Shown here piece by piece: positions 971 to 42,174 of a DNA stretch of 42,174 nt. The stretch comes from a virus. The notes under the pieces are model-generated. The model saw only the letters and a program-made list of their open reading frames with translations. It made no database searches and was not told the DNA's origin. Numbering within the stretch: the first letter of the stretch is position 1; each line of letters opens with the position of its first letter. The stretch lies in the IMG/VR virus record IMGVR_UViG_3300045988_054358. One strand, given 5' to 3'. The translations under genes were made by a program, and so were the position numbers.

Positions 971-1008
971 ATAAATAACACCAATATTAAATAAAATAAA
1001 TGGTACCA

Positions 1009-1085
1009 CTGGTGAGACTCGAACTCACATAATACAATTTAGAAGATTGTTTCTTTGTCCAATTAAGATACAGTGGTGTGACTTA
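1009..1085 (-). tRNA. tRNA-Arg (anticodon UCU, reads AGA), 77 nt with encoded CCA
   Basis: Folded by hand from the minus strand: acceptor ACCACUG/CAGUGGU, D-stem UCUU/AAGA with GG in the loop, anticodon stem ACAAU/AUUGU with loop CUUCUAA (U33, UCU at 34-36, A37), 5-nt variable loop, T-arm GUGAG-UUCGAGU-CUCAC, discriminator A, then CCA. Confidence 0.8.
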
Positions 1086-10675: not shown

Positions 10676-11971
10676 TTATCTTCTTATATGATATCCTGTC
10701 TTAGGTCTACTGTAGTAGATTGTACCCTTAGAGACACTACTAGTAGAGGTATCCCGAGTATCTTTAATGTTGTCTCCAATATCATTAGTGACAAACCCAA
10801 AGAAGCTCTCAAGATGCTCTTCAAGCCACTGCTCAGTAACCTCATTGATGCCTTCATCAGCATCTATACCCATGAAGTCAATAAGATAGGCTACACCCTG
10901 AGCTAGTGCATCAAGTCTATCATCATGCTTTAAGGAACCTTTGTCTCTTGTAATTCTAGTTAATTGATAGAAACAGGAGTACTTATAGTCACTTTCAGGA
11001 ACACTTGTAGCATCCTTTTGGATACACTCAGGGGACACTACCATTTTATGATTAGTAATGACAGGCTCAAGTGTATCAATAATGCGTTGTTCCTTCTGTC
11101 CCTTTGATCTCACTTCAGTACACCCACAGCCCCCATAGACAGCCTTTAAGACAGGCTCAAAGAGCTTAGTGTACATCCCGTCACCAAAGTTACCTTCAAT
11201 GACTACCTCATTTACTTTCCATTTCTTAGCAACCCTAGCTAATTTATCAAGAGTGACATCAGAATACCCACTAGTGAAGCCCCCTGTTTCCATCACATAG
11301 ATGAACCCATTGAGCCAATACAGTACTGCATATCCTGTTTCATCTGAGCCTCTACCTGATGGGTCAATAGACATCATTTTGTACCCATAAGGTTGCATCT
11401 GATCAGAAGCAGAGAAGAAATAAAAGTAGCCATCACCCTTAAGACCCAAGTTGGTAACCTGATTAGGATCACACCTCTTAGTTACGTCAGGAAGCCACGA
11501 GAGCTTCATTGGAGCCTCAGAGGTATCAAAGGTACCCACAAGCAAATCTCGAAGCTTTAAGGGGTATTTATTGGCATCATTGAGGGTAGTATCGAGCATG
11601 AACTGAAGCATGAAACCAGCTCTACCATAAGAGAGTTCACGCTTCTGTAAGTCCATATCATCGAATCTTAAGGGATCGGTAGGTTTCCCTGCAATCTTAG
11701 GATCATTATCGTACTTATCAGCAATAAACTTAGCTAAACGAGTACCATAAGTTCTCCTATGTTTTTCATCATAAGGGAATCTCGCAGGGTAAATGATACA
11801 GGTATACCCTCTTTCTTGTAGCTCATTATAAAGAGACATCTCATTCTGAGGAGTACCTAGGTAAATAATCTGAGATTTATCCCCCGGTTTAATCACAGAG
11901 TCAAACTCCTTCACGAGTTCTGAGAGTTTATCTCTAAGTACCTGAGTAAAGGAGTTCTTCGGAACTTCCAC
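10676..11971 (-). CDS. terminase large subunit, exon 2 (C-terminal 431 aa)
   Basis: Begins VEVPKNS... and aligns with T7 gp19 VEIPSNS...VIYLGTPQTEM..., continuing to the C-terminus (GYAVLY.LNG.IY.ME.GG...DGMF.K, HDDRLDALA). Confidence 0.9.
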   Translation of the reverse strand: MEVPKNSFTQVLRDKLSELVKEFDSVIKPGDKSQIIYLGTPQNEMSLYNELQERGYTCIIYPARFPYDEKHRRTYGTRLAKFIADKYDNDPKIAGKPTDPLRFDDMDLQKRELSYGRAGFMLQFMLDTTLNDANKYPLKLRDLLVGTFDTSEAPMKLSWLPDVTKRCDPNQVTNLGLKGDGYFYFFSASDQMQPYGYKMMSIDPSGRGSDETGYAVLYWLNGFIYVMETGGFTSGYSDVTLDKLARVAKKWKVNEVVIEGNFGDGMYTKLFEPVLKAVYGGCGCTEVRSKGQKEQRIIDTLEPVITNHKMVVSPECIQKDATSVPESDYKYSCFYQLTRITRDKGSLKHDDRLDALAQGVAYLIDFMGIDADEGINEVTEQWLEEHLESFFGFVTNDIGDNIKDTRDTSTSSVSKGTIYYSRPKTGYHIRR

Positions 11972-12754
11972 CTTTATGTTAGGGTAAGGTCGTTAGTCTT
12001 ACCCCATCGTCTTTTTAGTGAATCTACTGCATTTTCAGTAGCAGATACAAACTTACAGTGATCCCTAGAGTAGATCCCACAGTTGCCCTTCTTGATGTCC
12101 TTATCAAGATGCATACTAGAATCTTTCTCCCAGTCTTCATAACCTTCAACCTCATGAATTGTATTCAAAAAGGTAGTAAAGTTATGCCACCTAGGATCTA
12201 CCACACAGCCTACATAGCTAGTCTTGTAGTTACCATAGGCTCTCTTAAGCATATTAGCCCACAGGTCATAGATTCTACGGATGATGCTATTAGAGCCTCT
12301 ATCAGGTATTCTAATAGGAGACCCCATAAAACCCACACCATAGACTGTAGGTTTCATAAAGTCCTCAAACTTGCCTGCCTTAATGTTACACGTCTGAACA
12401 TCTATGACTGTACCAGTCTCGACAAACTGAATGACAGCCCTAGGATGTTTGGTTTTACCATTAGGAAGTTTTTGTTTCTTAGTCCTAGACAGAATCTTAA
12501 TAAGACCTTTAGGAGTTTCGTAAGTTTTGTTAATTTCGTACATAGTTATGTTCCTTATAATTGACGATGCTTCATATCTCTATGAAGACCAGACTATATC
12601 TTGTGCTCACTTAGAGCACCCCCATTTTTCGAGTCACTTGGCTCTACATAATAGTCGTTACACCTGCTATAAAGCTCGGCTCGGTATTGTCTTTCCTAGT
12701 TAGGACTGAGTTTCACCGAATTTAAGGGGTTTAGAGACGACATGGTTAAAGTTT
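11972..12754 (-). mobile_element. group I intron (783 nt) in the terminase large subunit gene
   Basis: Removing it restores ...[11 protein letters not shown]|VEVPKNS... (T7: ADDVEIPSNS). The 5' exon ends GAU, the intron ends ...CAUAAAG. Core elements: P AAUUCGGUGAAAC (12713-12725), Q GACAAUACCGAGC (12677-12690), R GUAACGACUAU (12651-12661), S CAAGAUAUAGUCU (12581-12593). Confidence 0.8.
11974..12543 (-). CDS. intron-encoded ORF, 189 aa, family not recognised (candidate homing endonuclease)
   Basis: Sits in the 3' half of the terminase intron. Its stop TAA is 2 nt before the 3' splice site. No clear LAGLIDADG, GIY-YIG or HNH signature. Confidence 0.5.
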   Translation of the reverse strand: MYEINKTYETPKGLIKILSRTKKQKLPNGKTKHPRAVIQFVETGTVIDVQTCNIKAGKFEDFMKPTVYGVGFMGSPIRIPDRGSNSIIRRIYDLWANMLKRAYGNYKTSYVGCVVDPRWHNFTTFLNTIHEVEGYEDWEKDSSMHLDKDIKKGNCGIYSRDHCKFVSATENAVDSLKRRWGKTNDLTLT

Positions 12755-13228
12755 ATCGTCTGCCACAATGAGATCAGCACGGGAACCCGTAAGTTGCCCT
12801 TCGATGCCCACAGATTTCAAGCTAGGGGAGTGATCGGGTCTAGCAGGGCCTACATCAAAGAGATTCTGTGTATCTCTCTGTCCTTCTCTAGCCTTAAGGT
12901 GTTCCAAGAAGGGAAGAGTATTCATGATTTTCTTAATAAAGACAGCATTAGCATCAGCTCTTTCTTTATTAGCAGAGACAATCATGATCTTAATCTGTGG
13001 GTCTCTCCATAGTCTCCACACAGAGTAAGCACAAGTAATAAAACTCTTGGCTACCCCTCGGAACCCTTCAAGGATAAATCTGTTGTTAGGGAGATTCTGA
13101 AGTGTCTTAGCGATATCCAACTGGACAGCAGTAGGTCTAGGAAGCCCAATGTACTTCCATACAAGACCTACAAACAGAGGAAAATTATCATAGAAATCTT
13201 TAAGAGATTCTTGCGAATTCAATTTCAT
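12755..13228 (-). CDS. terminase large subunit, exon 1 (N-terminal 158 aa)
   Basis: [47 protein letters not shown]...[11 protein letters not shown] matches the T7 gp19 N-terminal ATPase region. The unspliced reading frame stops 2 codons later (KL*). Confidence 0.9.
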
Positions 13229-13941: not shown

Positions 13942-16071
13942 TTACATTGATTTTCTTTCTTTAATCTCAACCATCTTGCCATCATTCATTCGAGTATGGC
14001 CCTTAATGTTACTGTAGCCCAAATAACCACAGACACGAGAGACAACAGAGATATTACTAGAGCCACACACAGGGCACTTAAAAAGTACGTTAGTGCTATG
14101 ATTATGGCAATCCTCACAGTATGCGGCATCAAAGTTAACACCCTGATAAAATCCCTGAGACATTCCCTTAAGGATAACCGCCTCAAGTGCCTTGAGATTC
14201 TTTGGGTTAGTAATCTTTACATACTGAATGTGACCACCATTACATTTGTGGAAAAATTCGTACTCTTCATCTTGTTTTTCAAAAGGCGTGACGTCTTCGG
14301 TAACTTTAAGATGAAAGGAATTAGTGAAGTATTCTCCAAATTGAGTATCACCAGTGAAATCTCTATATTGTTTTGCTTGGGTTGCACACAAAGACTCCGC
14401 AGGAGTACCATATAAAGCATAAAGATAATGATCTTCTTTTTTGTAATCCTGAATGAGTTTGTTAATGAAGTCCAAGCATTGATTAGCAAATTCTTTAGTC
14501 TCATGAAGTCCTTTACCATTAGTCCATAACACAGTAGCCTCATGAAGGGCAGTAATACCAAAAGAGGCTGTCATATAGTTTACAAGATCACCAACTTCAT
14601 CATCAGGCTTTAAGAATCCCTTATAGAATCCCCCTTGAGTGAATGCCATAGGATTAGTAGAAGCCCTAGTGTGTCTGATGATGTCATAGCGTTTCTTAAG
14701 GAACTCTCTGATTGCTTCCATTCGATCCTTAAGGACATCCCAGAAGTGATCTCTCCAAGATTCTCCAAAGTCTCTCTTACAGACTGCCATAATGACAGGA
14801 AGGTTAAGAGAAACTGCTCCAATATTGCATCTACCAATAGTGATATACTTGCCTGTATCAGGATCAGCCCAAGGAGTGAGATACGCCCGGCATCCCATCG
14901 GTGACGTAATAGCCCCGTGGTTAATAAAGGTATCTGCTACAACATTATGCTCAGGATCACCCCTCAAAGAGAGCCAATCGGGATACATACACTTAGAGGA
15001 ACACTCGATAGCCTTAGTGTAAATCTGTTTGGAATACAAATCGTTATTAACTTGTTCTTCATCAAACAGGTAGACCAGCTTAGGAAACACGACCTGTTTT
15101 CCCCCATGCCCCTTCATTCGAGTGTCAAGCATGATGGTATCAATAAGACAAAGGATATTACGATCTTCAGCACTCAGGTGTTCCCAATCGAATTGCCCAA
15201 AAGTAATCGTAGTGAAAGCAAAGTCACCACGAGAGCACGGAATGGTATTTACCTTAAGTTCCATACTCTGAAAACCCTGAGTGAGTTCTCTAGTTAGGGT
15301 TTCCCACACAAAGTTCTCACACTGAGAGTCATCACTGAAGTATTTCTTATAGAGTTCTCTAGCAGTTTTCATAGTCTTCTTGCAGTAAGGCAAAAGAACC
15401 TTATCGAGTTCTGCAAGGGTGAACCCACCGAACTGCTGAGCTGTGGCAATAAGAGTAACATCACCGATAACCTGAAGGGCACTAAGGACACTATTAGGTT
15501 CTGTATAGGTCGTATTGGACATCTCAAAGCCACCCTTCAAGACAGTCCCAATATCAAAAAGACAACAATTGACAGACCCTAAGATCATATCTCGGAGATC
15601 ATGAATATAAATGTCACCTCTCTTGGTGAGTGCCTTTTCTTCTGTGCTCAGATAGAATTGCTTATAGAGAGCCTTAGTGAGATACCCACGGATGAGACTA
15701 CCTTTGGTAGAACTAAGAGAGCTATCAAAGTTAGCATTCTCTTTGTCTCCCAAGAAGAGAACATTATCAGCTTCTTTCTTAAGGTTCTCAAATTCCTTCA
15801 CGTAGGTGTTCTTATAGTCCCTGTATTCCTGATAGGCTTTAGAAATCTCAGGGAAGTTCTCAAAGGCTAAGTAATGGATTACCAAAGAGTGAAGCTCAGA
15901 GACACTTACTGAATCCCTATCTTTGATCTCAGAGAGAACTCCGAGAATAACTCTTTCAATGGAGAAATCAGTAATAGGACACTTGCACCTTTCAGCGGCC
16001 TTATGGATAGCCACTTTGATCTTATTAGTATCCCAAGGTTCCTGAGTGTTGTCTTTCTTTGTAACGTTCAT
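13942..16071 (-). CDS. nrdD: anaerobic ribonucleoside-triphosphate reductase (class III RNR, NrdD)
   Basis: 709 aa. N-terminal ATP-cone, C-terminal Zn-ribbon CEDCHNHS...CPVCGS, and the glycyl-radical motif RVCGYLG. Confidence 0.9.
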   Translation of the reverse strand: MNVTKKDNTQEPWDTNKIKVAIHKAAERCKCPITDFSIERVILGVLSEIKDRDSVSVSELHSLVIHYLAFENFPEISKAYQEYRDYKNTYVKEFENLKKEADNVLFLGDKENANFDSSLSSTKGSLIRGYLTKALYKQFYLSTEEKALTKRGDIYIHDLRDMILGSVNCCLFDIGTVLKGGFEMSNTTYTEPNSVLSALQVIGDVTLIATAQQFGGFTLAELDKVLLPYCKKTMKTARELYKKYFSDDSQCENFVWETLTRELTQGFQSMELKVNTIPCSRGDFAFTTITFGQFDWEHLSAEDRNILCLIDTIMLDTRMKGHGGKQVVFPKLVYLFDEEQVNNDLYSKQIYTKAIECSSKCMYPDWLSLRGDPEHNVVADTFINHGAITSPMGCRAYLTPWADPDTGKYITIGRCNIGAVSLNLPVIMAVCKRDFGESWRDHFWDVLKDRMEAIREFLKKRYDIIRHTRASTNPMAFTQGGFYKGFLKPDDEVGDLVNYMTASFGITALHEATVLWTNGKGLHETKEFANQCLDFINKLIQDYKKEDHYLYALYGTPAESLCATQAKQYRDFTGDTQFGEYFTNSFHLKVTEDVTPFEKQDEEYEFFHKCNGGHIQYVKITNPKNLKALEAVILKGMSQGFYQGVNFDAAYCEDCHNHSTNVLFKCPVCGSSNISVVSRVCGYLGYSNIKGHTRMNDGKMVEIKERKSM

Positions 16072-16598: not shown

Positions 16599-17444
16599 TT
16601 AATAACCACAGGCATACCACCCACGTGTGAGCGTATCCCTGTAATCATCTTGGTTATAGCCGTGTGGTTCAAACGATGTAGTTGATATAGAATTAACGAA
16701 CACAGGGTCAATTACCCCGACACACGCCACACAGGGAATACTAGTGAAGGGCCATCCAAAGGATCTAGTACCCCTTCCTTGCGCCGTATCCCCCTGCTCA
16801 ATAAACCCATCAGACCACTTGCGGTACCACATAGTGCCTTTATTTGCAACTGTGGTTACATAAGCATTGGGGGTAGGCCCAGACGATCCAGCAGGCCCCT
16901 GTGGACCACGAGGACCGGTATCTCCCCTGTCACCCTTATCACCCTTAGGAATACCAAATGTAAACACAGGAGCCGCATCAGTTCCTGATTTAGTTACTGT
17001 AGCGGCACTTCCTGAATCAAGAGTTTTAGCGGCTACTGAGATAGTCGGGGGTGTCACCAAGAACCCCGAATCATTAGAAAGCTGAGATGTCTTAGTAGGA
17101 ATCTTATTATTGATGGTATTCAGAGTAGTCTGTAAGTTAGTCACATCAGCTACAGCATGAGTATGAGCCTTGTTGGCTTTACCTGCAAGCCCATCTGTAA
17201 GGGCCTTAGTAGTAGCATAGTCCCCTTTAGGTTGCTTACCATCAAGGGTAGTCTGAAGGTTAGTCACATTAGAGATACTGTGTGTATGACTTTCAGATGC
17301 CATAGGGTAGTTAGTACCAGCAGTACCACTCATGCCTACCCACTTCTTCTTTGTCTTATCCCAGACTAACTGACCCTCAACACCAGCATAAGCATTGATC
17401 TGTGCAGTAGTACCAGTTAATTGTTTTCTTTGTTTAATTGCCAT
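16599..17444 (-). CDS. second tail-fiber or receptor-binding protein with a collagen-like segment
   Basis: 281 aa. Two copies of the HTH..ADVTNLQTTL.GKQ.KGDYATTKALTDGLAGKAN module also present in the main fiber. GDKGDRGDTGPRGPQGPAG collagen-like run. Immediately followed by Tfa. Confidence 0.65.
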   Translation of the reverse strand: MAIKQRKQLTGTTAQINAYAGVEGQLVWDKTKKKWVGMSGTAGTNYPMASESHTHSISNVTNLQTTLDGKQPKGDYATTKALTDGLAGKANKAHTHAVADVTNLQTTLNTINNKIPTKTSQLSNDSGFLVTPPTISVAAKTLDSGSAATVTKSGTDAAPVFTFGIPKGDKGDRGDTGPRGPQGPAGSSGPTPNAYVTTVANKGTMWYRKWSDGFIEQGDTAQGRGTRSFGWPFTSIPCVACVGVIDPVFVNSISTTSFEPHGYNQDDYRDTLTRGWYACGY

Positions 17445-17452
17445 AATTCACT

Positions 17453-19867
17453 TTAAGGGGTACCTAAGTCCCCGTAATCTACAAATCCTTCAAAAGTAGC
17501 AACACTAAGTTTACCATTAAGTGCATCCTGAAGACCAGTCACATTAGCTACCGTATGGGTATGTGATGTGTTAGCCTTACCAGCAAGCCCATCTGTAAGA
17601 GCTGTAGTTGTCGCATAGCTCCCCTTGGCTTGCTTACCATCAAGAGCAGTCTGAAGACCCGTAACGTTAGCTATAGTGTGCGTATGGGATGCATTAGCTT
17701 TACCTGCAAGACCATCTGTAAGAGCCTTAGAGGTAGCATAATCGCCCTTAGCCTGCTTGCCATCAAGAGCAGTCTGAAGACCAGTCACATCAGCTACAGC
17801 ATGGGTATGAGCCTTGTTGGCTTTACCTTCAAGACCAGTACTAAGAGCCGTAGCTGTAGCATAGATACTCAGATCAGGTTTATTCTTAATGAAATCCTTC
17901 TGAGTACTATCGGACTGATTCCAGTCAGACTGAAGCTGACCTGTAGATGCCTGATCAGCATAACTTCTAGCTAAATCTGCCTGTTTCTTAGCTTCAGCTT
18001 CAGAAGCCTTAGCTTTATCCGCAGAACTACTAGCAGATTCCTTATGGGTAGCCGCAGTGTCCTCAGAGAGCTTAGCCGCCTTAGCTGAGTTAGCACTAGC
18101 AGTAGCCTGTGTGGTAGCTGTAGTGGCACTACTAGCAGAACTCTTTGCGCTAGCATCTGCCTGACTAGCTGAGGTACTAGCAGAGGTTGCACTAGCTTCA
18201 GCTTCAGAAGCCTTAGTAGTAGCAATGGTAGCCTGAGCAGTAGCCTTAGTTACCTCAGCCTTAGCTAAGTTAACCTGCTTAGTACCTTCAGCCTGTACGG
18301 ACTGCACAGAGGTAGCTTCAGCATCAGTCACCTTCTTTACAGAGCTAGTACCAGCATCAGTTACTCTAGTTACCTGTTTGGTACCCTCAGCAGTAACCAA
18401 GGCAGTCTGTTGCTTAGCAATATTGGCTTGCTCAGTAGCCTTAGTTACTTCAGCCTTAGCTAAGTTAACCTGTTTAGTACCCTCATCAGTCACTTGCTTG
18501 ACAGCTGAGGCAACAGCCTGATTAACTGCCTGACCCCCATCAGTCTTAGCCTTGTTAGCATAATACTTAGCAGAATACTCAGTATCATCAACAGTGCCAT
18601 CCATCTTGTTAGCCCAGTCCTTTGCAAGACTAGCACTACCTGATGCACTCACCTTAGATGCCTGAGCACTAGCTTCAGCACTACTCGCATTAGTAGCACT
18701 TGTTTCAGCACTCTTAGATGCCTTCTCAGCTCTTGTGGTAAGGCTAGTGACAGTGTTAACTGACTCAATAACTGTCTCAAAGTCAGGAGCTAAGCCTGCA
18801 ACAGTACGGACTGACTCAATGTTGTCTGCAACAACCTTGATGTTACCACCAGTGATTGTCGGTGAGGGAGCACTCGGATTCCCTAAGTCCCCATAGTCAT
18901 CATAGAGGGTATCTGAAAGAGAACCTGTAAGGTCGTTACCTACAATGTTAATGTTGCTGATACTATTTGAGTCAGTAACAACACTATCAATGTTATCAGC
19001 TACGACCTTAATCTCAGGAGCAATAGGGACAATGACATTAGCTACTGAGGTAACCGCCTCTTCAGATTTCTTAGCGTTAACCTCAGATTCCTTAGCGTTC
19101 TTAGCACTAAGGACAGCCTCATCAGCTCTTGCTACAGTGATTGCAGTGTTATCTTTGGTTTCCTTATGGAGAACCCGATCCTCTGCAATGATCTCTCTAG
19201 CTTCCTTAATGATAGCTCTATTCTCAGTCCTTACTTCATCAGCATGAGCAGAGGCACTTACAGCATTCTCTTCAGAAGTCTTAGCCTTTGTCTCAGACAG
19301 CTTAGCATTCTCTTCGGACTTCTTAGAGTTAGTCTCAGCTTCAACAGCTCTGTCTCTAGCTTTCTCTGCGGCAATCTTTGAATGAAGGGCACCTAAAGCA
19401 TCAGCCTTATAGATGCCATAAGTCATAGCATCGTTATCAGCTACAGGGGTACCAACATTGATAATTCTCTTGTTTCTAGCATCCCAGTTATTCTCTCTGT
19501 CGACAACAAGAGCATCATTGATGACATCACGTGCTTCTTCAGCAATATGAAAAGCCTGAACTTGAGCAGTATCCAAGTCCTTAGAGTACAACACAGAGCC
19601 ATCTCTAAAAGATGCCACTCTTTCTTTAACTGAGGTATATCTTCGGATAGTGATTGTCTGTGCTGTAGTAGGGACAATCTTTCTCAGTCTGATTGTAGTA
19701 GCATCCACAAAGTAATAGTCCGCAGAAGTATCTGTAGTGCTACCACCTTTGAGTTCTGTAACGGAATCTAAAAGAACCTTCACAAAACTCTTTCTAAGGT
19801 AATCGAAGGGTACTGCAAAATCAGTAGTACTTCCATCACCCCTATAAATAATAAGTGTGTTTGCCAT
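17453..19867 (-). CDS. tail fiber protein (T7 gp17-like N-terminus, long Ala/Ser/Lys-rich repetitive shaft)
   Basis: 804 aa. N-terminal MANTLIIYRGDGSTTDFAVPFDYLRKSFVKV...HIAEEARD is equivalent to the gp17 tail-attachment domain. The C-terminus carries three copies of the 32-aa module. Confidence 0.85.
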   Translation of the reverse strand: MANTLIIYRGDGSTTDFAVPFDYLRKSFVKVLLDSVTELKGGSTTDTSADYYFVDATTIRLRKIVPTTAQTITIRRYTSVKERVASFRDGSVLYSKDLDTAQVQAFHIAEEARDVINDALVVDRENNWDARNKRIINVGTPVADNDAMTYGIYKADALGALHSKIAAEKARDRAVEAETNSKKSEENAKLSETKAKTSEENAVSASAHADEVRTENRAIIKEAREIIAEDRVLHKETKDNTAITVARADEAVLSAKNAKESEVNAKKSEEAVTSVANVIVPIAPEIKVVADNIDSVVTDSNSISNINIVGNDLTGSLSDTLYDDYGDLGNPSAPSPTITGGNIKVVADNIESVRTVAGLAPDFETVIESVNTVTSLTTRAEKASKSAETSATNASSAEASAQASKVSASGSASLAKDWANKMDGTVDDTEYSAKYYANKAKTDGGQAVNQAVASAVKQVTDEGTKQVNLAKAEVTKATEQANIAKQQTALVTAEGTKQVTRVTDAGTSSVKKVTDAEATSVQSVQAEGTKQVNLAKAEVTKATAQATIATTKASEAEASATSASTSASQADASAKSSASSATTATTQATASANSAKAAKLSEDTAATHKESASSSADKAKASEAEAKKQADLARSYADQASTGQLQSDWNQSDSTQKDFIKNKPDLSIYATATALSTGLEGKANKAHTHAVADVTGLQTALDGKQAKGDYATSKALTDGLAGKANASHTHTIANVTGLQTALDGKQAKGSYATTTALTDGLAGKANTSHTHTVANVTGLQDALNGKLSVATFEGFVDYGDLGTP

Positions 19868-29852: not shown

Positions 29853-29919
29853 TTAACCCGCAGACTGAGCAGTCTTCACAAAGAGACCCACAGCTTCAGG
29901 ACGGAGACCACCGTGGCCC
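29853..29919 (-). CDS. major capsid protein, exon 2 (C-terminal 21 aa: (M)GHGGLRPEAVGLFVKTAQSAG)
   Basis: Hand-translated. T7 10A ends AMGHGGLRPEAAGAVVFKVE. The split AUG codon is completed by AU from exon 1. Confidence 0.8.
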
Positions 29920-30815
29920 CAAACTAACATATTTGTTAGCTAGACTATCGCTTACCCCTTAGGGTTCTTTTCATTTAGTCGTTGCTTGTGCCAATAAAGG
30001 ATCATCTCCGCATCATGACGTTTAAGTCTTAGATGTGGAATGATTGCCTTTAATACTTTAGTAGCAATTCCGTAGAATGATGCACCAAAGTTTAAACGAA
30101 ACTCTTTTATGTTCTCTTTAGTTGTCTTGTAGATCTTACCACCGTAAGTTCTCTGTATCAACTCTACAGAACATACATCGGATTTTTGTACATGGATCTT
30201 AAGCCAATGCTCTCTTTCTGAGTGCCTAAGATATCCGTCACCATCAATATACCCTGCCAACCATGCAGGACTAGCGTTCTTCTTATATCTAGTAGGCCCT
30301 GTATCAGCCCTAGATTCTTTGGCAAACTTTCTTAATTCGTCTACCTGCTCTTGAGTCAGGTTTACCCCAGCTAGCTCTCTACGCTTTTCGAGCATTCTCT
30401 GAAAGTGTTTGCCTTTGATTACCATATGTTTAATGATATGTGGCAAGAACTTCTCTAAGTCATTCTTACCTGCTACTTTCCAAAATTTTTGATTCTTGGA
30501 TGTTATATCAGTGACACTGCCTACGTCGTAAGCATCTCTTAAGAATTGTAGAAGTTTAAATCCTCTACCTCGATTATCAATCTGAGTAATCCCAAACTGT
30601 AGTCCTATACGAAAGAATCCATCTACAGTTTTATTAAAGTGGAAAGAAATGGCTCCGTCAGCATCGGCGAAACCTGCAACATATTTATTTAGAGTTTCAT
30701 TATATTTACTCATCTTTGTATATACCTATACTGTTTTATGAGTTAATTGGCTTCAATCGGGTTGTCTATAAAGAGTTTCCCGTTGTTTAGAAAAGATTAC
30801 GCGACAGGTTAGTTT
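29920..30815 (-). mobile_element. group I intron (896 nt) in the major capsid gene
   Basis: The 5' exon ends ...GCGAU. The intron ends ...GUUAGUUUG. Core elements: P CAACGGGAAAC (30771-30783), Q CAACCCGAUUG (30744-30756), R CAACGACUAAAUG (29972-29984, inside the HEG ORF 3' end), S AAGCGAUAGUCUAG (29939-29953). Confidence 0.8.
29952..30713 (-). CDS. LAGLIDADG homing endonuclease (double-motif), intron-encoded
   Basis: 253 aa. Motif 1 YVAGFADADGAISF and motif 2 AWLAGYIDGDGYL, each with a downstream helix. Confidence 0.85.
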   Translation of the reverse strand: MSKYNETLNKYVAGFADADGAISFHFNKTVDGFFRIGLQFGITQIDNRGRGFKLLQFLRDAYDVGSVTDITSKNQKFWKVAGKNDLEKFLPHIIKHMVIKGKHFQRMLEKRRELAGVNLTQEQVDELRKFAKESRADTGPTRYKKNASPAWLAGYIDGDGYLRHSEREHWLKIHVQKSDVCSVELIQRTYGGKIYKTTKENIKEFRLNFGASFYGIATKVLKAIIPHLRLKRHDAEMILYWHKQRLNEKNPKG

Positions 30816-31756
30816 ATCGCGAATTTAGCAATGATCTGATCGGCCTGATATTCAGCTCGGCGAGCACGTTCAAGAGCCAAATCTTTCAGCTTAACAGTAC
30901 CCACAGCGGAACGATGGAAGACAATACCCTGAAGACCAGCAGTAGCAACCTTCGTATTCAGAGTGTGCTTACCATCAATGCCTTCATTGAGGAGGTTCGG
31001 GGTTTCGATAATCTGGAAACCACAAATGTTCTGAATCTTAGACCCATCACCACCCCAGAAGGCTTGATAGTTGGCAGAATCGGGGAACAAAGCACGGATC
31101 AGAGCAGAGTAACCATCAGGGGTGAGCAGGCAGTAACGGTCACCCTGAGGCACATAGTTCTTGGTGAACTGTGCACGAGCCGCCACAAGACCCTCAAGAA
31201 TCTTGTTGCCATAAGCCGCAGTCTGATCAATATCAGCACCAGTCACAAACTCAAATGCCTTACCAGTGCCCTTGGCGCCACCAGTCACGTCAGGAATGTT
31301 ACCATCCTTACTCGTAGCATCAATAGCCGCCTCATTGGCAAGTTCATTGATAATAGCACAGTCAGCACCCTGAGCAAGTGCTTCACCCAACTGCTTGGAG
31401 TATTCCGCACGAACGTCATAATGGTTCATTGCGTCTTCAATATCCGTAATAAGGACATCAGAAGTCAAGAGACCGTCAATAGAAATAACTCGTTCGTTGT
31501 GCTGAATAGCTTTACGCTGATCATCAAGAGAGTTACCGGGTTCAAGGTACTTAGCAATTGCACGACCCATCACAGGAAAGCTCGCGCTCTTTCCACTTGA
31601 AATAGTACGCACAATGTGCTTGTTCATCATGGTGGATGTCCGAGTGAAAGCCGTAAGGACTTCACCAGCAAACACCTTCAGGAACAACTCACGTCGATCA
31701 GAACCACCGAGTTTCTGACCAGGATCGGAAATAGAAGTAGCAGTAAGAGCCGCCAT
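30816..31756 (-). CDS. major capsid protein, exon 1 (313 codons; unspliced frame ends ...AKFAIN*)
   Basis: LFLKVFAGEVLTAFTRTS...HIVRTISSGKSASFPVMGR...FHRSAVGTVKLKDLALERARRAEYQADQIIAKFA is about 60% identical to T7 gp10A. Confidence 0.92.
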
Positions 31757-31802
31757 ATTAGTTTTATTTTCCTTTTTTAGATTTACTTTAGTTAGTTTTT
31801 AT

Positions 31803-32627
31803 TTAAAAAAGACCATTAGAGAGGGACATCTTGCGTTCCACACTAATAGTGTAAGCACGATCAATGCCATAACGAGGATCACTCATAGCTTTGATCATTT
31901 CATCACGCCCAGAGAATCCCTTAGGGGCACTCTTAGAGACACCCCCAAGGAGGGTAGCCTTTCGAGTTCCCTGTTTAGCAACTCTCTTAGCCTGAATACC
32001 ATCAAGAATAAGCTTAACAGCATTCAAATTGTCACTATTGACTGCCTCATTGTAGGCATCAAGTTCAGCCTTAGAGAGGTTCCCCTTCATCCAAGTCTGC
32101 AACTCTCGGAAGTCCTTCTCACCACCTACGTGATTCATGACATCCTGAGCATACTTATTGTCAATAGCCTTTCGGGTTTCTACAAAGCCCTGAATGACTT
32201 CCTTGGGATACCCTGCCTTCTCAAGAGCCTCATAAGTCTTCTGAGAAAGTTCACCATTGTTCTGATATTCTTCAATGGCACCAAGGAAATCAACACCTTT
32301 AGAGATCAGGTCTTTACCAAGTGCTTCAATAGCCTTATCATTAGATTCTCTCTGAGTATCTAAAGAGGCTTCTTCACTAGCCTTGGTGTCTTCTGCACCC
32401 TCCTGAGGTTCTTCAGGTGTTTCTTCTTTAGGGGCTTCTTCGTCAGCAGAACCATCAAGGTCATCAGTGGCACCTTCAGTGCCCATCTGAAGGATTTCCC
32501 CTGAGTTAGTTTCTTCAACAACTACATCCTTAATAGCATCTGCTTCACTACCCGTAACTGCATCCTTACCATAAAACTCTTCATTAGAGTTTACTTCAGG
32601 ATTTTCATTGGTTTCAATATCTGCCAA
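31803..32627 (-). CDS. scaffolding protein (gp9-like)
   Basis: 274 aa. Very acidic N-terminal half. Lies between portal and capsid. Confidence 0.7.
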   Translation of the reverse strand: MADIETNENPEVNSNEEFYGKDAVTGSEADAIKDVVVEETNSGEILQMGTEGATDDLDGSADEEAPKEETPEEPQEGAEDTKASEEASLDTQRESNDKAIEALGKDLISKGVDFLGAIEEYQNNGELSQKTYEALEKAGYPKEVIQGFVETRKAIDNKYAQDVMNHVGGEKDFRELQTWMKGNLSKAELDAYNEAVNSDNLNAVKLILDGIQAKRVAKQGTRKATLLGGVSKSAPKGFSGRDEMIKAMSDPRYGIDRAYTISVERKMSLSNGLF

Positions 32628-32663
32628 AATTAATCTCCAATAGCTTGCTATTCACAAGCCTAG

Positions 32664-33108
32664 TTATTGCTGAGTAGCTTGGTTTACAGCTACCTCATTG
32701 GCTCCCTCAATGGCTTGCTGATCCATCTGAGCCTGATTGATATCTGCCTGAGCTTCTTCAGGCGTCTTAATGATCCCATTAGCGTCAATCCCTGCCGCCG
32801 CAAAGATTCTCGTAAAGAGACCCGAGTAGTTCAATACCTGTTGCCCTTCAGGGAACTGAACAATCAGCTGAGTAACTTCTACAAGTTTCTGTAAGTCTGC
32901 CCCACGACCAAGAGCATCAAGACCAGTAATAATAGTAGGCTCAATGTTCTCACCAATGTTGGCATCCGTGGGGAGCATGCTCATAGACTGCATCTGATTA
33001 AAGATACAGTTCACCAAAGGAATCTGAAGTTCCTGAGAGAGCAAGCTATAGACACCACCAAGGGTATCTTCAAGTTCTCCAGCAACATATCGGATTTCTT
33101 CTGCCGTT
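32664..33108 (-). CDS. head-tail connector (portal) protein, exon 2
   Basis: TAEEIRYVAGELEDTLGGVYSLLSQELQIPLV... matches T7 gp8 TAEEIRYVASELEDTLGGVYSILSQELQLPLV. Confidence 0.88.
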
Positions 33109-33859
33109 CTTTTATATTATCGGGGAGTCGTTAATTCCCCACTTATAGTTACCTATAAGAATAGACTATCTCTTACCTAAAGGTTTCTACATTTCGAGCC
33201 ACTTGGCCCTACTCCTTGCGGATAGTCGTTACACTCACTTAACCTTCTTGGCACCTGTAACCTTAGCCCAAGATTTACCCTTCCAAATACCACTGATAGT
33301 AGTCCTAGAAACGTCCATTTTGTAGCGATTCTTGAACTGTGTGGGTGTCAGCCCACTATCTCGGAATTTGTAAATAAAGAGAACTTCTGATGAAGTTAAC
33401 TTATGAGTCCCGATAAGTTCCCCGTATTGCTCCATATGGAAACCGTTGTCTCTACAGTGTCTGATGTTCTGTTGAGCAGTACACCACTCTAAGTTATCAG
33501 CAGAGTTATTATAACGATTACCATCCTTGTGATTAACTTGGGGGTAATTATTAGGATTCGGGATAAATGCTTGAGCAACAAGACGATGCAAGGGAATAAA
33601 CTTAGAGCAATGGTCTGCCCCTAAGTGTATCTTCACATATCTGTTGTTCTTGGTTATAGATGTACCTTTAACCCATTTACCATTATCATTATTCAAGATA
33701 GTTCCATCTTCAAATAATGTATAGTTGTAATAGCACGGAAAAGGTAATAATTTATTAAGGTTGGTATTTCTCATAGAGTTAAACACCTCGTTAGCTCGGT
33801 ATTGTCCCCGAAGGGAGGTTCACCGAATTAGTAGAATTTATAGAGAGCCACTTTAGTTA
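33109..33859 (-). mobile_element. group I intron (751 nt) in the portal gene
   Basis: Exon 1 ends ...AGGGU. The intron starts UAACUAAAG and ends ...AUAAUAUAAAAG. Splicing gives GUA (Val) then ACG GCA GAA = V-T-A-E as in T7 (GERVTAEE). Core elements: P AAUUCGGUGAAC (about 33818-33829), Q GACAAUACCGAGC (33793-33806), R AACGACUAU (33231-33240), S AGAGAUAGUCUAU (33161-33175). A UUCG tetraloop hairpin is present. Confidence 0.85.
33235..33774 (-). CDS. HNH homing endonuclease, intron-encoded
   Basis: 179 aa from the ATG. HLHRLVAQAF...VNHKDGNRYNNSADNLEWCTAQQNIRH is the His-Asn-His core. Confidence 0.85.
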   Translation of the reverse strand: MRNTNLNKLLPFPCYYNYTLFEDGTILNNDNGKWVKGTSITKNNRYVKIHLGADHCSKFIPLHRLVAQAFIPNPNNYPQVNHKDGNRYNNSADNLEWCTAQQNIRHCRDNGFHMEQYGELIGTHKLTSSEVLFIYKFRDSGLTPTQFKNRYKMDVSRTTISGIWKGKSWAKVTGAKKVK

Positions 33860-34974
33860 ACCCTCTCGCCTTGTCTTTGTACCGCAGAATTCAAGAGGAA
33901 GCAGTAAGACAGTCTAGCTTCAATATCAGAAGCAGTAGCCTGACACACCTGCAAGTCACTTGTCTTCTGAATCTGCACAGGCATAATATCTTCAGGTTTA
34001 CCCTTTACGAAGGCCCCATTTTCACACTTGGCAAGTTCCCTAATATTAGTCTGACAAGAGGGACTAACCAAGAAGATAACCTTGGCACTCAGCATGGAGA
34101 TATCGACAATAGCCTTAGAGAGATTCTCAAGGGAAATTAAGTCACCCAAATAGTCATCAATAAAGCTTCGTCCATAGGATTCCCCATCACGCTTAAAGAA
34201 TCGAATAGGAATCCAAGGGAGCTTATTCATGGGGAATGTCTGTTCACTCCCCTCGACTACCTGCTCATTGATTTCCTGATAAGACTGCCACTGATAGGAC
34301 TCACCTTGATTGACTCGGAACACATGAGTATAGATATCAACTTTCTCATTGATCTCTGCATCATCAGCATTTTCCATGTATTCCAAAAGGTTCTCAGGAA
34401 GAGAACCCTTAGAGACAGTATCTTTAGTGACAATCTGAAGGACATTCCCAGTGCCATCTCTCTCTACTACATAGTCTCTCAAGTGGTAACACTTTACACC
34501 ACCTTCTTTAGGCGGAAGAAACAGCAGTGCATTACCTGAAATGATGAGCTGTTTGAGAGCATCAAAGAGAGTAGGTCTAAAAGAAATACTCTCAATGTAT
34601 CTCATCATAGCTTGTTCCATCATAGACAAGCCATAGTCAATCTGTTCCTTAGTATCAGGGTCTGCCTGATCCAACTTCTGCTGATTCTCAGTATCAAGAC
34701 CCAACCTAAAGAAGGGCTGAGAGGGGGGCAACAAGGCAAGCAAAAGTTTAGAAGCTAGATTGTTTACACCACGAGCACCCACAGAGTTATAAGGAGTGTC
34801 ATAAGTCGTAGAACTATTATCAGATTCCTTAGGGAATGCCTTGGGAATCGTATAGGTAGCACACTTCTCTGCTCTCTGAGTGTAATCATCACGCTCCTGA
34901 GTAAGACGATTATAGGTTGTCTTAGCACCTAATTCTTGCATCTCTGCAAGTACATTATCACTACTAGTTGCCAC
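33860..34974 (-). CDS. head-tail connector (portal) protein, exon 1
   Basis: YNRLTQERDDYTQRAEKCATYTIPKAFPKESDNSSTTYDTPYNSVGARGVNNLASKLLLAL...NSAVQRQGERV aligns with T7 gp8 residues 1 to about 375. Confidence 0.9.
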
Positions 34975-41463: not shown

Positions 41464-42160
41464 GTTCAAACTTGTAACGAGCAGAATACCAACCCTTAAG
41501 ATTGGCATAAGCTTTTTTATCTGAGGAAGAGGCATAGCAGAAGTGCTCAAAGGGTGTCATGTGTCCGCCCTCAATAAGACTCTCTGCAAGCTTAAAGTCA
41601 TCATCAGTAGATGGCGGGGTACCATCATGCTTATTATAACTCACTCTAGCACACCTAGCGGCACTCAGATGGATGATCTTCTCCCACTCCTCACAATAAG
41701 GAGCATGAATGAACCCTACAACAGAATAAACCTTACTCATAGCCTTCTTCATTGCATTCGCAAGGTCTCTCATGTGAGGCTCAGCATCATCAGCCAATCG
41801 GAGCTTAAAGAAGTTATCCCATTCAGTAGCCGTAACAACTACCTTAATGAAACTAAAAGGCTCCAAGAGGCGATTTACGATCTGCTTATGGAGACCCAAA
41901 GATTCAAGCCTCTTAGCATTACTAATAGCCTCCTTACGGGCTAACTTCCAAGCATTCTCATACTGCCCAACCTTAGTAGGATCAGTGATTTCAGCATTGT
42001 TCACCATGCCTTTACTATTCTGCATCCAATGTGTAGGCATTACGGTAGCTTCTTCAATGAGTCTCTTAATGGGAATAGCTCGTGAAGAACTAGCATTACG
42101 GCTAAACATTCGGTGAGTCATAAACTCACTGTGGATAAACCTAGGATAAATAAGCTCCAA
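41441..42160 (-). CDS. thyX: flavin-dependent thymidylate synthase (ThyX)
   Basis: 239 aa. The ThyX signature RHRMFSRNASSSRAIP (RHR-x7-S) and a C-terminal conserved region. Confidence 0.85.
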   Translation of the reverse strand: MELIYPRFIHSEFMTHRMFSRNASSSRAIPIKRLIEEATVMPTHWMQNSKGMVNNAEITDPTKVGQYENAWKLARKEAISNAKRLESLGLHKQIVNRLLEPFSFIKVVVTATEWDNFFKLRLADDAEPHMRDLANAMKKAMSKVYSVVGFIHAPYCEEWEKIIHLSAARCARVSYNKHDGTPPSTDDDFKLAESLIEGGHMTPFEHFCYASSSDKKAYANLKGWYSARYKFEHGAKNGS

Positions 42161-42174
42161 GGTAGTAACCGTAA

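Follow-up and report, generated by a model that had tools for sequence, protein, structure and literature searches.

Bacteriophage T4 has group IA2 introns in its td, nrdB and sunY (nrdD) genes, with the endonucleases I-TevI, I-TevII and I-TevIII, and the open reading frame (ORF) of the sunY intron lies in the loop of helix P9.1. Among T7-like phages, phiI and W31 have a group I intron within their gene for DNA polymerase. The three T4 introns are treated in a review (PMC2988022). DNA polymerase introns of T7-like phages have also been described in K1F (PMC4925675), in Pf-WMP3, together with the endonuclease I-PfoP3I (PMC3428280), and in LUZ24 (PMC10914365), and one in phiL7 is cited in another paper (PMC10580990). 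Elsewhere, 45 introns have been reported in the Bastillevirinae (PMC11878797), Cluster J mycobacteriophages have capsid and tail introns (PMC3706429), and a terminase intron of Lactobacillus phage LL-H is cited in a further paper (PMC9610469). No intron of a portal, capsid or terminase gene of a T7-like phage is described in the literature searched, the coverage of which is incomplete. Here, we analyse a stretch of viral DNA of 42,174 nucleotides (nt), IMG/VR record IMGVR_UViG_3300045988_054358, which as a whole is called the window below. We conclude that it is the genome of an Autographiviridae-type (T7-like) phage in which a mobile group I intron splits each of three genes, those for the portal, the major capsid protein and the large terminase, and we give this reading a probability of roughly 0.87.

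In each of the three late genes the reading frame ends early and resumes several hundred bases downstream. Splice sites were chosen to bring the two parts of each gene back into frame, with U as the last nucleotide of the upstream exon and G as that of the intervening sequence (Table 1). In all three cases only one boundary gives the frame with U at position -1 and a terminal G (...AAAG or ...UUUG), and an in-frame stop codon follows within three codons of the 5′ splice site, in the portal intron two codons past it. Inteins were rejected because such stops come after every 5′ junction. The interruptions, already recognized as introns in a first-pass annotation of the window, thus yield on removal full-length proteins of 519 (portal), 335 (capsid) and 589 (terminase) amino acids (aa), all of them gapless against the uninterrupted genes of relatives. 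The spliced portal aligns with the T7 gp8 structure 6r21 (E = 4e-148) and the spliced capsid with the T7-like structure 7y23 (E = 1e-95), neither with a gap at the junction (QRxGERV/TAEEIRYVA and AKxA/MGHGGLRPE, respectively; the slash marks the junction), and the junction of the spliced terminase is gapless against the uninterrupted gene of a relative (locus L002; IVADD/VEVP.NSF). The strongest single evidence for a boundary is an intron-less allele: the relative L011 (IMGVR_UViG_3300045988_034786) is 98% identical to the window on both flanks and lacks exactly positions 29920..30815. As had been proposed, the insertions fall within conserved stretches of late genes that are essential: over the 15 aa on either side of the sites the local identity is 62-89%, against 51-68% over the whole proteins. 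The sequence LIVADD at the end of terminase exon 1 is read as the Walker B region.

Table 1. Features of the three interrupted genes, in window coordinates; all lie on the minus strand.
Feature	Position (strand)	Details
Portal exon 1	33860..34974 (-)	codons 1-371 + 2 nt; 3′ end ...GAGAGGGU
Portal group I intron	33109..33859 (-)	751 nt; 5′ start UAACUAAAG, 3′ end AUAAAAG
Portal guide GCUCUCU	33842..33848 (-)	pairs with exon AGAGGGU, 7 bp including the splice-site U·G
Portal intron 5′ core	33795..33836 (-)	P3 5′ strand UUCUAC, P4 UUCGGU/ACCGAG, P5 with UUCG loop
HNH homing endonuclease ORF	33235..33786 (-)	in P6 loop; 183 aa from GTG, 179 aa from ATG at 33774
Portal intron 3′ core	33122..33234 (-)	R/P7 5′ strand, P7.1, P7.2, P3 3′ strand GUAGAA, P8, S/P7 3′ strand, P9, P9.2
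Portal exon 2	32664..33108 (-)	start AACGGCAGAAGAA, giving V-TAEEIR
Major capsid exon 1	30816..31756 (-)	3′ end ...UUCGCGAU
Capsid group I intron	29920..30815 (-)	896 nt, terminal G
LAGLIDADG homing endonuclease ORF	29952..30713 (-)	253 aa, double-motif
Major capsid exon 2	29853..29919 (-)	21 codons, GHGGLRPEAVGLFVKTAQSAG
Large terminase exon 1	12755..13228 (-)	158 codons; 3′ end ...GCAGACGAU (LIVADD)
Terminase group I intron	11972..12754 (-)	783 nt, terminal G; contiguous core 12570-12754
LDKD-family ORF (PHROG 2081)	11974..12543 (-)	189 aa, in P9.1 loop
P9.1 3′ strand and P9.2 hairpin	11983..12011 (-)	GACGAUG, partner CAUCGUC 12563-12569; GGUAAG-ACUAACGAC-CUUACC
Large terminase exon 2	10676..11971 (-)	start GUGGAAGUU, VEVPKNS

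All three introns have an internal guide that pairs with the end of their own 5′ exon and finishes in a U·G pair at the splice site. The terminase guide GUCGUCU (12735-12741) forms 7 bp with exon AGACGAU, and the capsid guide GUCGCG (30800-30805) forms 6 bp with exon CGCGAU. At other sites in relatives, each guide is likewise complementary to its own exon. A P10 of 3-4 bp can be drawn for the capsid intron and for the terminase intron (CCAU/GUGG). The heptamer AGACGAU occurs twice in and next to the terminase intron, as the last 7 nt of exon 1 (12755-12761) and at the P9.1 3′ strand (12006-12012), and therefore the guide could pair with either copy; diverged orthologues (L070) lack this duplication, which may therefore be a coincidence.

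The core structure was examined by covariation in 82 distinct cores of the portal/terminase type, collected from IMG/VR and aligned. The scored structure, drawn from the terminase intron, consists of P3, P4, P5, P6, P7 (a pseudoknot), P7.1, P7.2 and P9; P4 is uninformative because it is invariant by construction, and P8 was left out because the MAFFT alignment shifts its register between sequences. Standard pairs fill 95.3% of the cells, compared with 34-43% when the partners are slid by 1-3 columns, and the covariation score is 0.441, compared with at most 0.106. Compensatory changes on both sides are seen in 27 of the 42 pairs, including a clean switch from A-U to G-C beside the bulged nucleotide of P7. 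P7.1 and P7.2 also covary; both are present in the portal intron, and the terminase intron has P7.2 with a reduced P7.1. The portal and terminase ribozymes are members of one large IA2-like family bearing P7.1 and P7.2. P9.1 of the terminase intron covaries as well, with compensatory changes in three relatives (L070, L100 and L118). An ORF-less relative of 255 nt has a folding z of -3.9, and its minimum-energy structure contains P4-P6, P7.2, P8, P9, P9.1 and P9.2. The P9.2 loop carries a motif, (A)(G/U)UAACGAC, a repeat of the R element's core that is conserved between introns inserted at different sites (33122-33140 and 11983-12003 in the window; also L051, L054, L112 and L217); no pairing partner of this motif was found.

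The capsid intron is of a different structural subtype and is more distant. Its P4 (AACGGG/CCCGAUU) and P7 (ACGACUA/UAGUCU) have the same motifs as those of the portal/terminase family, P3 is CUUUUC/GAAAAG and P9 lies at 29924-29939. Only AAU separates the 5′ strand of P7, ...ACGACUA, from the 3′ strand of P3, GAAAAG, which leaves no room for P7.1 and P7.2, and neither of these IA2-like helices is found. Compensatory changes in P3, P7 and P9 are seen against orthologues and a relative of the L151 type, in a small sample, by direct reading of a few variants.

Did one intron give rise to all three? The first-pass annotation proposed that a single lineage had spread within this genome and picked up different endonucleases; as a rival account, one lineage was recently copied to three sites and then gained different endonuclease genes. 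The shared strings on which this idea drew do exist: GTGTAACGACTAT occurs exactly twice in the window (12651-12663 and 33222-33234), as does AATTCGGTGAA..GACAATACCGAG (0 expected), so that exact blocks of 11-13 nt link the portal and terminase cores, and with the ORFs removed these two cores align far better than shuffles (z = 13.1). The endonuclease genes also differ in type and position, as the account supposes. Near-identity of the blocks was claimed for all three introns and holds for the portal and terminase pair. It fails for the capsid intron, which barely aligns with the other two (z = 4.7 and 1.6) and has an R element that differs from GTGTAACGACTAT at more than two positions. The P/Q block common to the portal and terminase introns is present in at least 120 IMG/VR viral contigs and is a family-wide ribozyme core. 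When 83 unique family cores were ranked over well-aligned columns, each having 82 possible neighbours, the portal and terminase cores stood only 64th and 71st in each other's lists, being about 55% identical (0.56) to each other and about 0.58-0.59 to unrelated family members. Same-site cores in other phages, in contrast, are 95-99% identical to those of the window. The interval assigned to the three introns, 29853..34974, was also too narrow: its ends are the stop codon of the capsid gene and the start codon of the portal gene, and it therefore holds only two of them, the terminase intron lying about 17 kb outside. Recent copying within the genome is in our view improbable. Judging from these sequence comparisons, the introns appear to be independent members of site-specific mobile lineages and not recent within-genome paralogues. 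The data fit a history in which each cognate site gained its intron separately, through homing from related phages, with jumps between sites as older events in a shared gene pool.

How do such introns move? Occupancy among relatives, the survey of which had been recommended, was counted by mapping the spliced window proteins onto loci fetched from IMG/VR. About 15 loci have an intron at the portal site and 6 lack one, and the terminase site at aa158 is occupied in about 10. The LAGLIDADG intron at capsid aa314 was found in 26 related contigs with 83-97% identity, and all loci that hold both junction sides are split at this same site; no intron of this kind was seen in the cultured-phage collection. 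Capsid aa55 and terminase aa178 (in L001/L112), aa366 and aa421 are further sites that have introns in this clade. These other introns encode endonuclease VII, HNH or GIY-YIG enzymes, some of them truncated. In the intron at terminase aa421, the GIY-YIG ORF measures 164 aa in L026, 86 aa in L123 (2793-3267) and 52 aa in L041 (12890-13311), so that the endonuclease gene decays within a retained intron; in L045 this intron has the same length as in L026.

Genomes 97-98% identical to the window differ from it by the capsid intron and by a 529-nt deletion in the terminase ORF. The latter occurs in L110, where the body of the ORF is gone and its last 55 nt, including the RRWGK codons, are kept; L110 is therefore most simply a deletion derivative. 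Another relative, the 97% identical L020, has a further group I intron of ~628 nt (L020 5205-5834), which contains an HNH ORF and lies close to the 3′ end of the gene for DNA polymerase A; the window has no intron at this site (window 37537/37544). Whole introns are 89-99% identical to same-site copies in other phages. Between phages with host proteins only 61-79% identical, whole introns are 89-94% identical, which fits horizontal movement by homing. Presence or absence at a fixed site among close relatives is combined here with an intron-encoded endonuclease, as expected of homing introns.

Each intron was said to carry a different ORF in a different place, and this proved correct for both type and position. 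The portal ORF matches Pfam HNH_3 (38.3 bits; cut-off 24.8) and I-HmuI (1u3e, E = 1e-6). It lies in the P6 loop, where a 7-bp P6a (GUUUAAC/GUUAAGU) closes around it, and its stop codon adjoins the R element. The capsid ORF matches Pfam LAGLIDADG_1 in two stretches (39.4 bits), with the motifs YVAGFADADGAI and WLAGYIDGDGYL; it begins in the P6 loop, crosses R, the P3 3′ strand and P8, and ends just before S.

The terminase ORF lies 3′ of the core, in the P9.1 loop, and its last codons also make up P9.1's 3′ strand and the hairpin P9.2, the P9.1 strand coinciding with the codons of a conserved RRW motif. It was described as of unknown type; it is indeed of a different type and has no sequence match in Pfam, NCBIfam or PDB, but with E = 1e-39 it matches PHROG 2081, for which the annotation is 'HNH endonuclease'. 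It has 126 unnamed homologues, and the residues LDKD..Y..F..N are invariant in this LDKD family. A structural model of the protein (pLDDT 91) contains an SH3/Tudor-like barrel, helices and a terminal beta-beta-alpha unit. It is probably a divergent beta-beta-alpha-Me nuclease.

Several points weigh against the reading of the three interruptions as functional mobile group I introns. With Rfam at the gathering threshold (50 bits), no intron was found in the window and permissive mode was required. Intron_gpI then scores 49.1 bits with the terminase core (E = 6e-11), 0.9 bits short of the gathering score, 26.2 bits with the portal intron (E = 0.0017) and 17.5 bits with the capsid intron. The two latter scores are low because ORF insertions break the cores, and members of the portal/terminase family at other sites in relatives score 52-64 bits, above the gathering score. 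No convincing P10 pairing was found for the portal intron. P7.2 of the terminase intron (GAGCC/GACUC, 12631-12644) has one C·A mismatch, which is intermediate between two compensated states, GAGUC/GACUC in L110 and GAGCC/GGCUC in L026. Covariation of the capsid type rests on few independent sequences, its 17 unique sequences being nearly identical except for one outgroup. The third ORF, that of the terminase intron, lacks the canonical His of HNH enzymes. The exons flanking the sites show no clear decay of identity with distance, as a co-conversion gradient would. Boundaries, a covarying core structure, endonuclease families and presence/absence polymorphism are observations, and from these we infer splicing, endonuclease cleavage and homing.

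The genes could also have been split by endonuclease cassettes without RNA splicing, the fragments being translated separately and then assembling. A separately translated split protein has a precedent in the NrdA/mobE locus of Aeromonas phage Aeh1 (PMC7344957), in annotations of cultured relatives the pieces figure as separate genes or as a pseudogene (PMC6115819), and splicing here is deduced from DNA sequence. This account leaves the conserved ribozyme cores and their strong covariation without a role, as it does the guides matched to each exon, the U at -1 and the terminal G. It also meets difficulties in the fragments themselves: capsid exon 2 is merely 21 codons, and homology of the second exons of portal and terminase starts upstream of any start codon. 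In addition, the terminase gene of L110 is still interrupted by a 255-nt intron that has lost its ORF, an arrangement that would be senseless if there were no splicing. We consider separate translation of the fragments very unlikely.

That the introns are decayed, or the contig defective or chimeric, so that the interrupted genes are non-functional, is hardly credible: the C·A mismatch in P7.2 and the Rfam scores under the gathering score would suit it, but numerous independent contigs have the same introns, as do cultured phages that form plaques (Vi06, Clickz and the fPS series), all other helices are intact, the endonuclease ORFs are open and the genome, which has a 141-nt terminal repeat, is complete. 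The same recurrence, among contigs and in culture, led us to reject an assembly artefact.

An outline of the process that we propose for the three introns is as follows: the intron RNA would fold into a group I core consisting of P1 and P3-P9, with the P3/P7 pseudoknot, and peripheral helices. The guide would pair with the last 6-7 exon nucleotides, ending in U·G. An external guanosine would attack the 5′ splice site, and the terminal G would then set the 3′ splice site, so that the ligated exons would yield intact portal, capsid and terminase proteins. The early in-frame stop would free ribosomes before they reach the core. The endonuclease genes would be accommodated in loops that tolerate insertions, P6 in the portal intron, P6 through P8 in the capsid intron and L9.1 in the terminase intron. 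The endonuclease would cut intron-less alleles of co-infecting relatives, and recombinational repair would copy the intron in. In this reading the three introns are separate members of site-specific lineages circulating among related phages, and the guides of the portal/terminase family have come to target at least 7-8 sites within the phage clade.

A more far-reaching reading takes the clade as the home of an intron 'swarm'. One ribozyme family would occupy the at least 7-8 portal, capsid and terminase sites, with introns bearing at least six endonuclease families that serve as weapons of competition, and the LDKD protein of the terminase intron would represent a hitherto uncharacterised catalytic class of homing endonuclease; we regard this as possible yet doubtful. 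In this reading other intron types fill further sites, such as capsid aa314 and the DNA polymerase site in the close relative. By analogy, introns of the clade might cut essential late genes of co-infecting rivals, a suggestion that we make with no more confidence. The intron endonuclease of phage phiPA3 has been shown to act as a weapon between co-infecting phages (PMC11620839).

The same introns are found in cultured phages, where they have not been annotated as such. Gene 19 of Salmonella phage Vi06 (L217, 34546-37140) encodes a terminase split at the same aa158 site by an intron with the guide GUCGUC, an LDKD-family ORF, the P9.2 hairpin and an Rfam score of 45.1 bits; in the public annotation it is a pseudogene with an internal 'HNH endonuclease'. 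The portal gene of Pectobacterium phage Clickz (L218, 16298-18535), the product of which is 29% identical to the window portal, is likewise split at ERV/TAEEIR, by an intron that shares the core blocks and has an HNH ORF; its public annotation consists of 'collar protein', 'HNH endonuclease' and 'head-tail connector protein'. Both records probably need re-annotation. Unannotated same-site introns are present also in Yersinia fPS, Klebsiella and Edwardsiella phages and, in the portal gene, in Pectobacterium PP90, and the terminase ORF family and core are present in deposited Autographiviridae. A connector ORF 'split' by an endonuclease has been reported in cultured relatives (PMC6115819), and endonucleases have been called 'unusual' in T7-like late genes (PMC5923468), in neither case under the name of intron.

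The remainder of the window is that of a T7-like phage. Its long ORFs all lie on the minus strand in a T7-like order: primase-helicase, family A DNA polymerase, portal, scaffold, major capsid, tail tube proteins, internal virion proteins, tail fibre, anaerobic ribonucleotide reductase and terminase, followed by an early region with a T7-type RNA polymerase. An exact direct repeat of 141 nt at the two ends (1-141 and 42034-42174) indicates a complete genome with a terminal repeat or the overlap of a circular assembly; since its first 141 nt recur at its end, the genome is complete at about 42.0 kb. No close relative was found among 50,697 deposited phage genomes, the best match being 75% identity in the capsid gene only, to human faecal contigs, and the clade is known largely from metagenomes, including human faecal samples. 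A scan of the whole window for further R...S pairs and Rfam matches gave no fourth intron. Between the tail-fibre region and the terminase genes lies NrdD (13942-16071, minus strand; 709 aa), an anaerobic ribonucleotide reductase with ATP-cone and glycyl-radical domains, a cargo that is to our knowledge unusual in a T7-like phage. Two adjacent tail-fibre-like ORFs on the minus strand (16599-17444 and 17453-19867) have a common repeat motif, HTH..VTNLQTxLDGKQxKGDYATxKALTDGLAGKAN, and the shorter one an additional collagen-like GDKGDRGDTGPRGPQGPAG stretch. The early region has a single tRNA gene (1004-1077, minus strand; 64.4 bits).

Self-splicing and homing are an established kind of biology, and no new mechanism is seen here; what is new is the choice of host genes of the introns in T7-like phages and that these introns went unannotated. 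Several mobile introns can thus reside in the virion and packaging genes of a T7-like phage; in the literature searched, the introns described for T7-like phages were found only in the DNA polymerase gene. Cultured Autographiviridae hold the same introns mis-annotated as pseudogenes or as split 'collar' or 'connector' genes, and such interruptions can distort gene calling as well as phylogenies based on terminase or portal. Near-identical genomes that differ by an intron or by an endonuclease ORF offer a natural system for the study of homing and endonuclease loss, and the LDKD family is a candidate for an uncharacterised endonuclease.

Compared with the systems described, the closest by host are the DNA polymerase introns of T7-like phages, which belong to the same phage group and have IA2-type ribozymes and intron-encoded HNH endonucleases; they interrupt a replication gene, whereas the window has no intron there and three in late genes. 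T4 likewise has three group I introns in one lytic phage, with P7.1 and P7.2 in the core, stop codons just inside the intron and a sporadic distribution among relatives, and its ORFs are looped from P6 (td-like, the arrangement of the portal intron) or from P9.1 close to the 3′ end (sunY-like, that of the terminase intron). The T4 introns lie in nucleotide-metabolism genes of a myovirus, whereas those studied here lie in virion and packaging genes of a T7-like podovirus, and the endonucleases differ, being I-HmuI-like HNH, LAGLIDADG and LDKD-family proteins in the window. I-HmuI itself, from the DNA polymerase intron of SPO1/SP82, is a sequence homologue of the portal ORF and differs in host phage, gene and target site. 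The introns of the Bastillevirinae, Twort-like phages, Cluster J and LL-H resemble the present ones in that several related group I introns occur per genome or clade and in that conserved parts of essential genes, including capsid and terminase, are hit, and they differ in phage family, host and insertion site.

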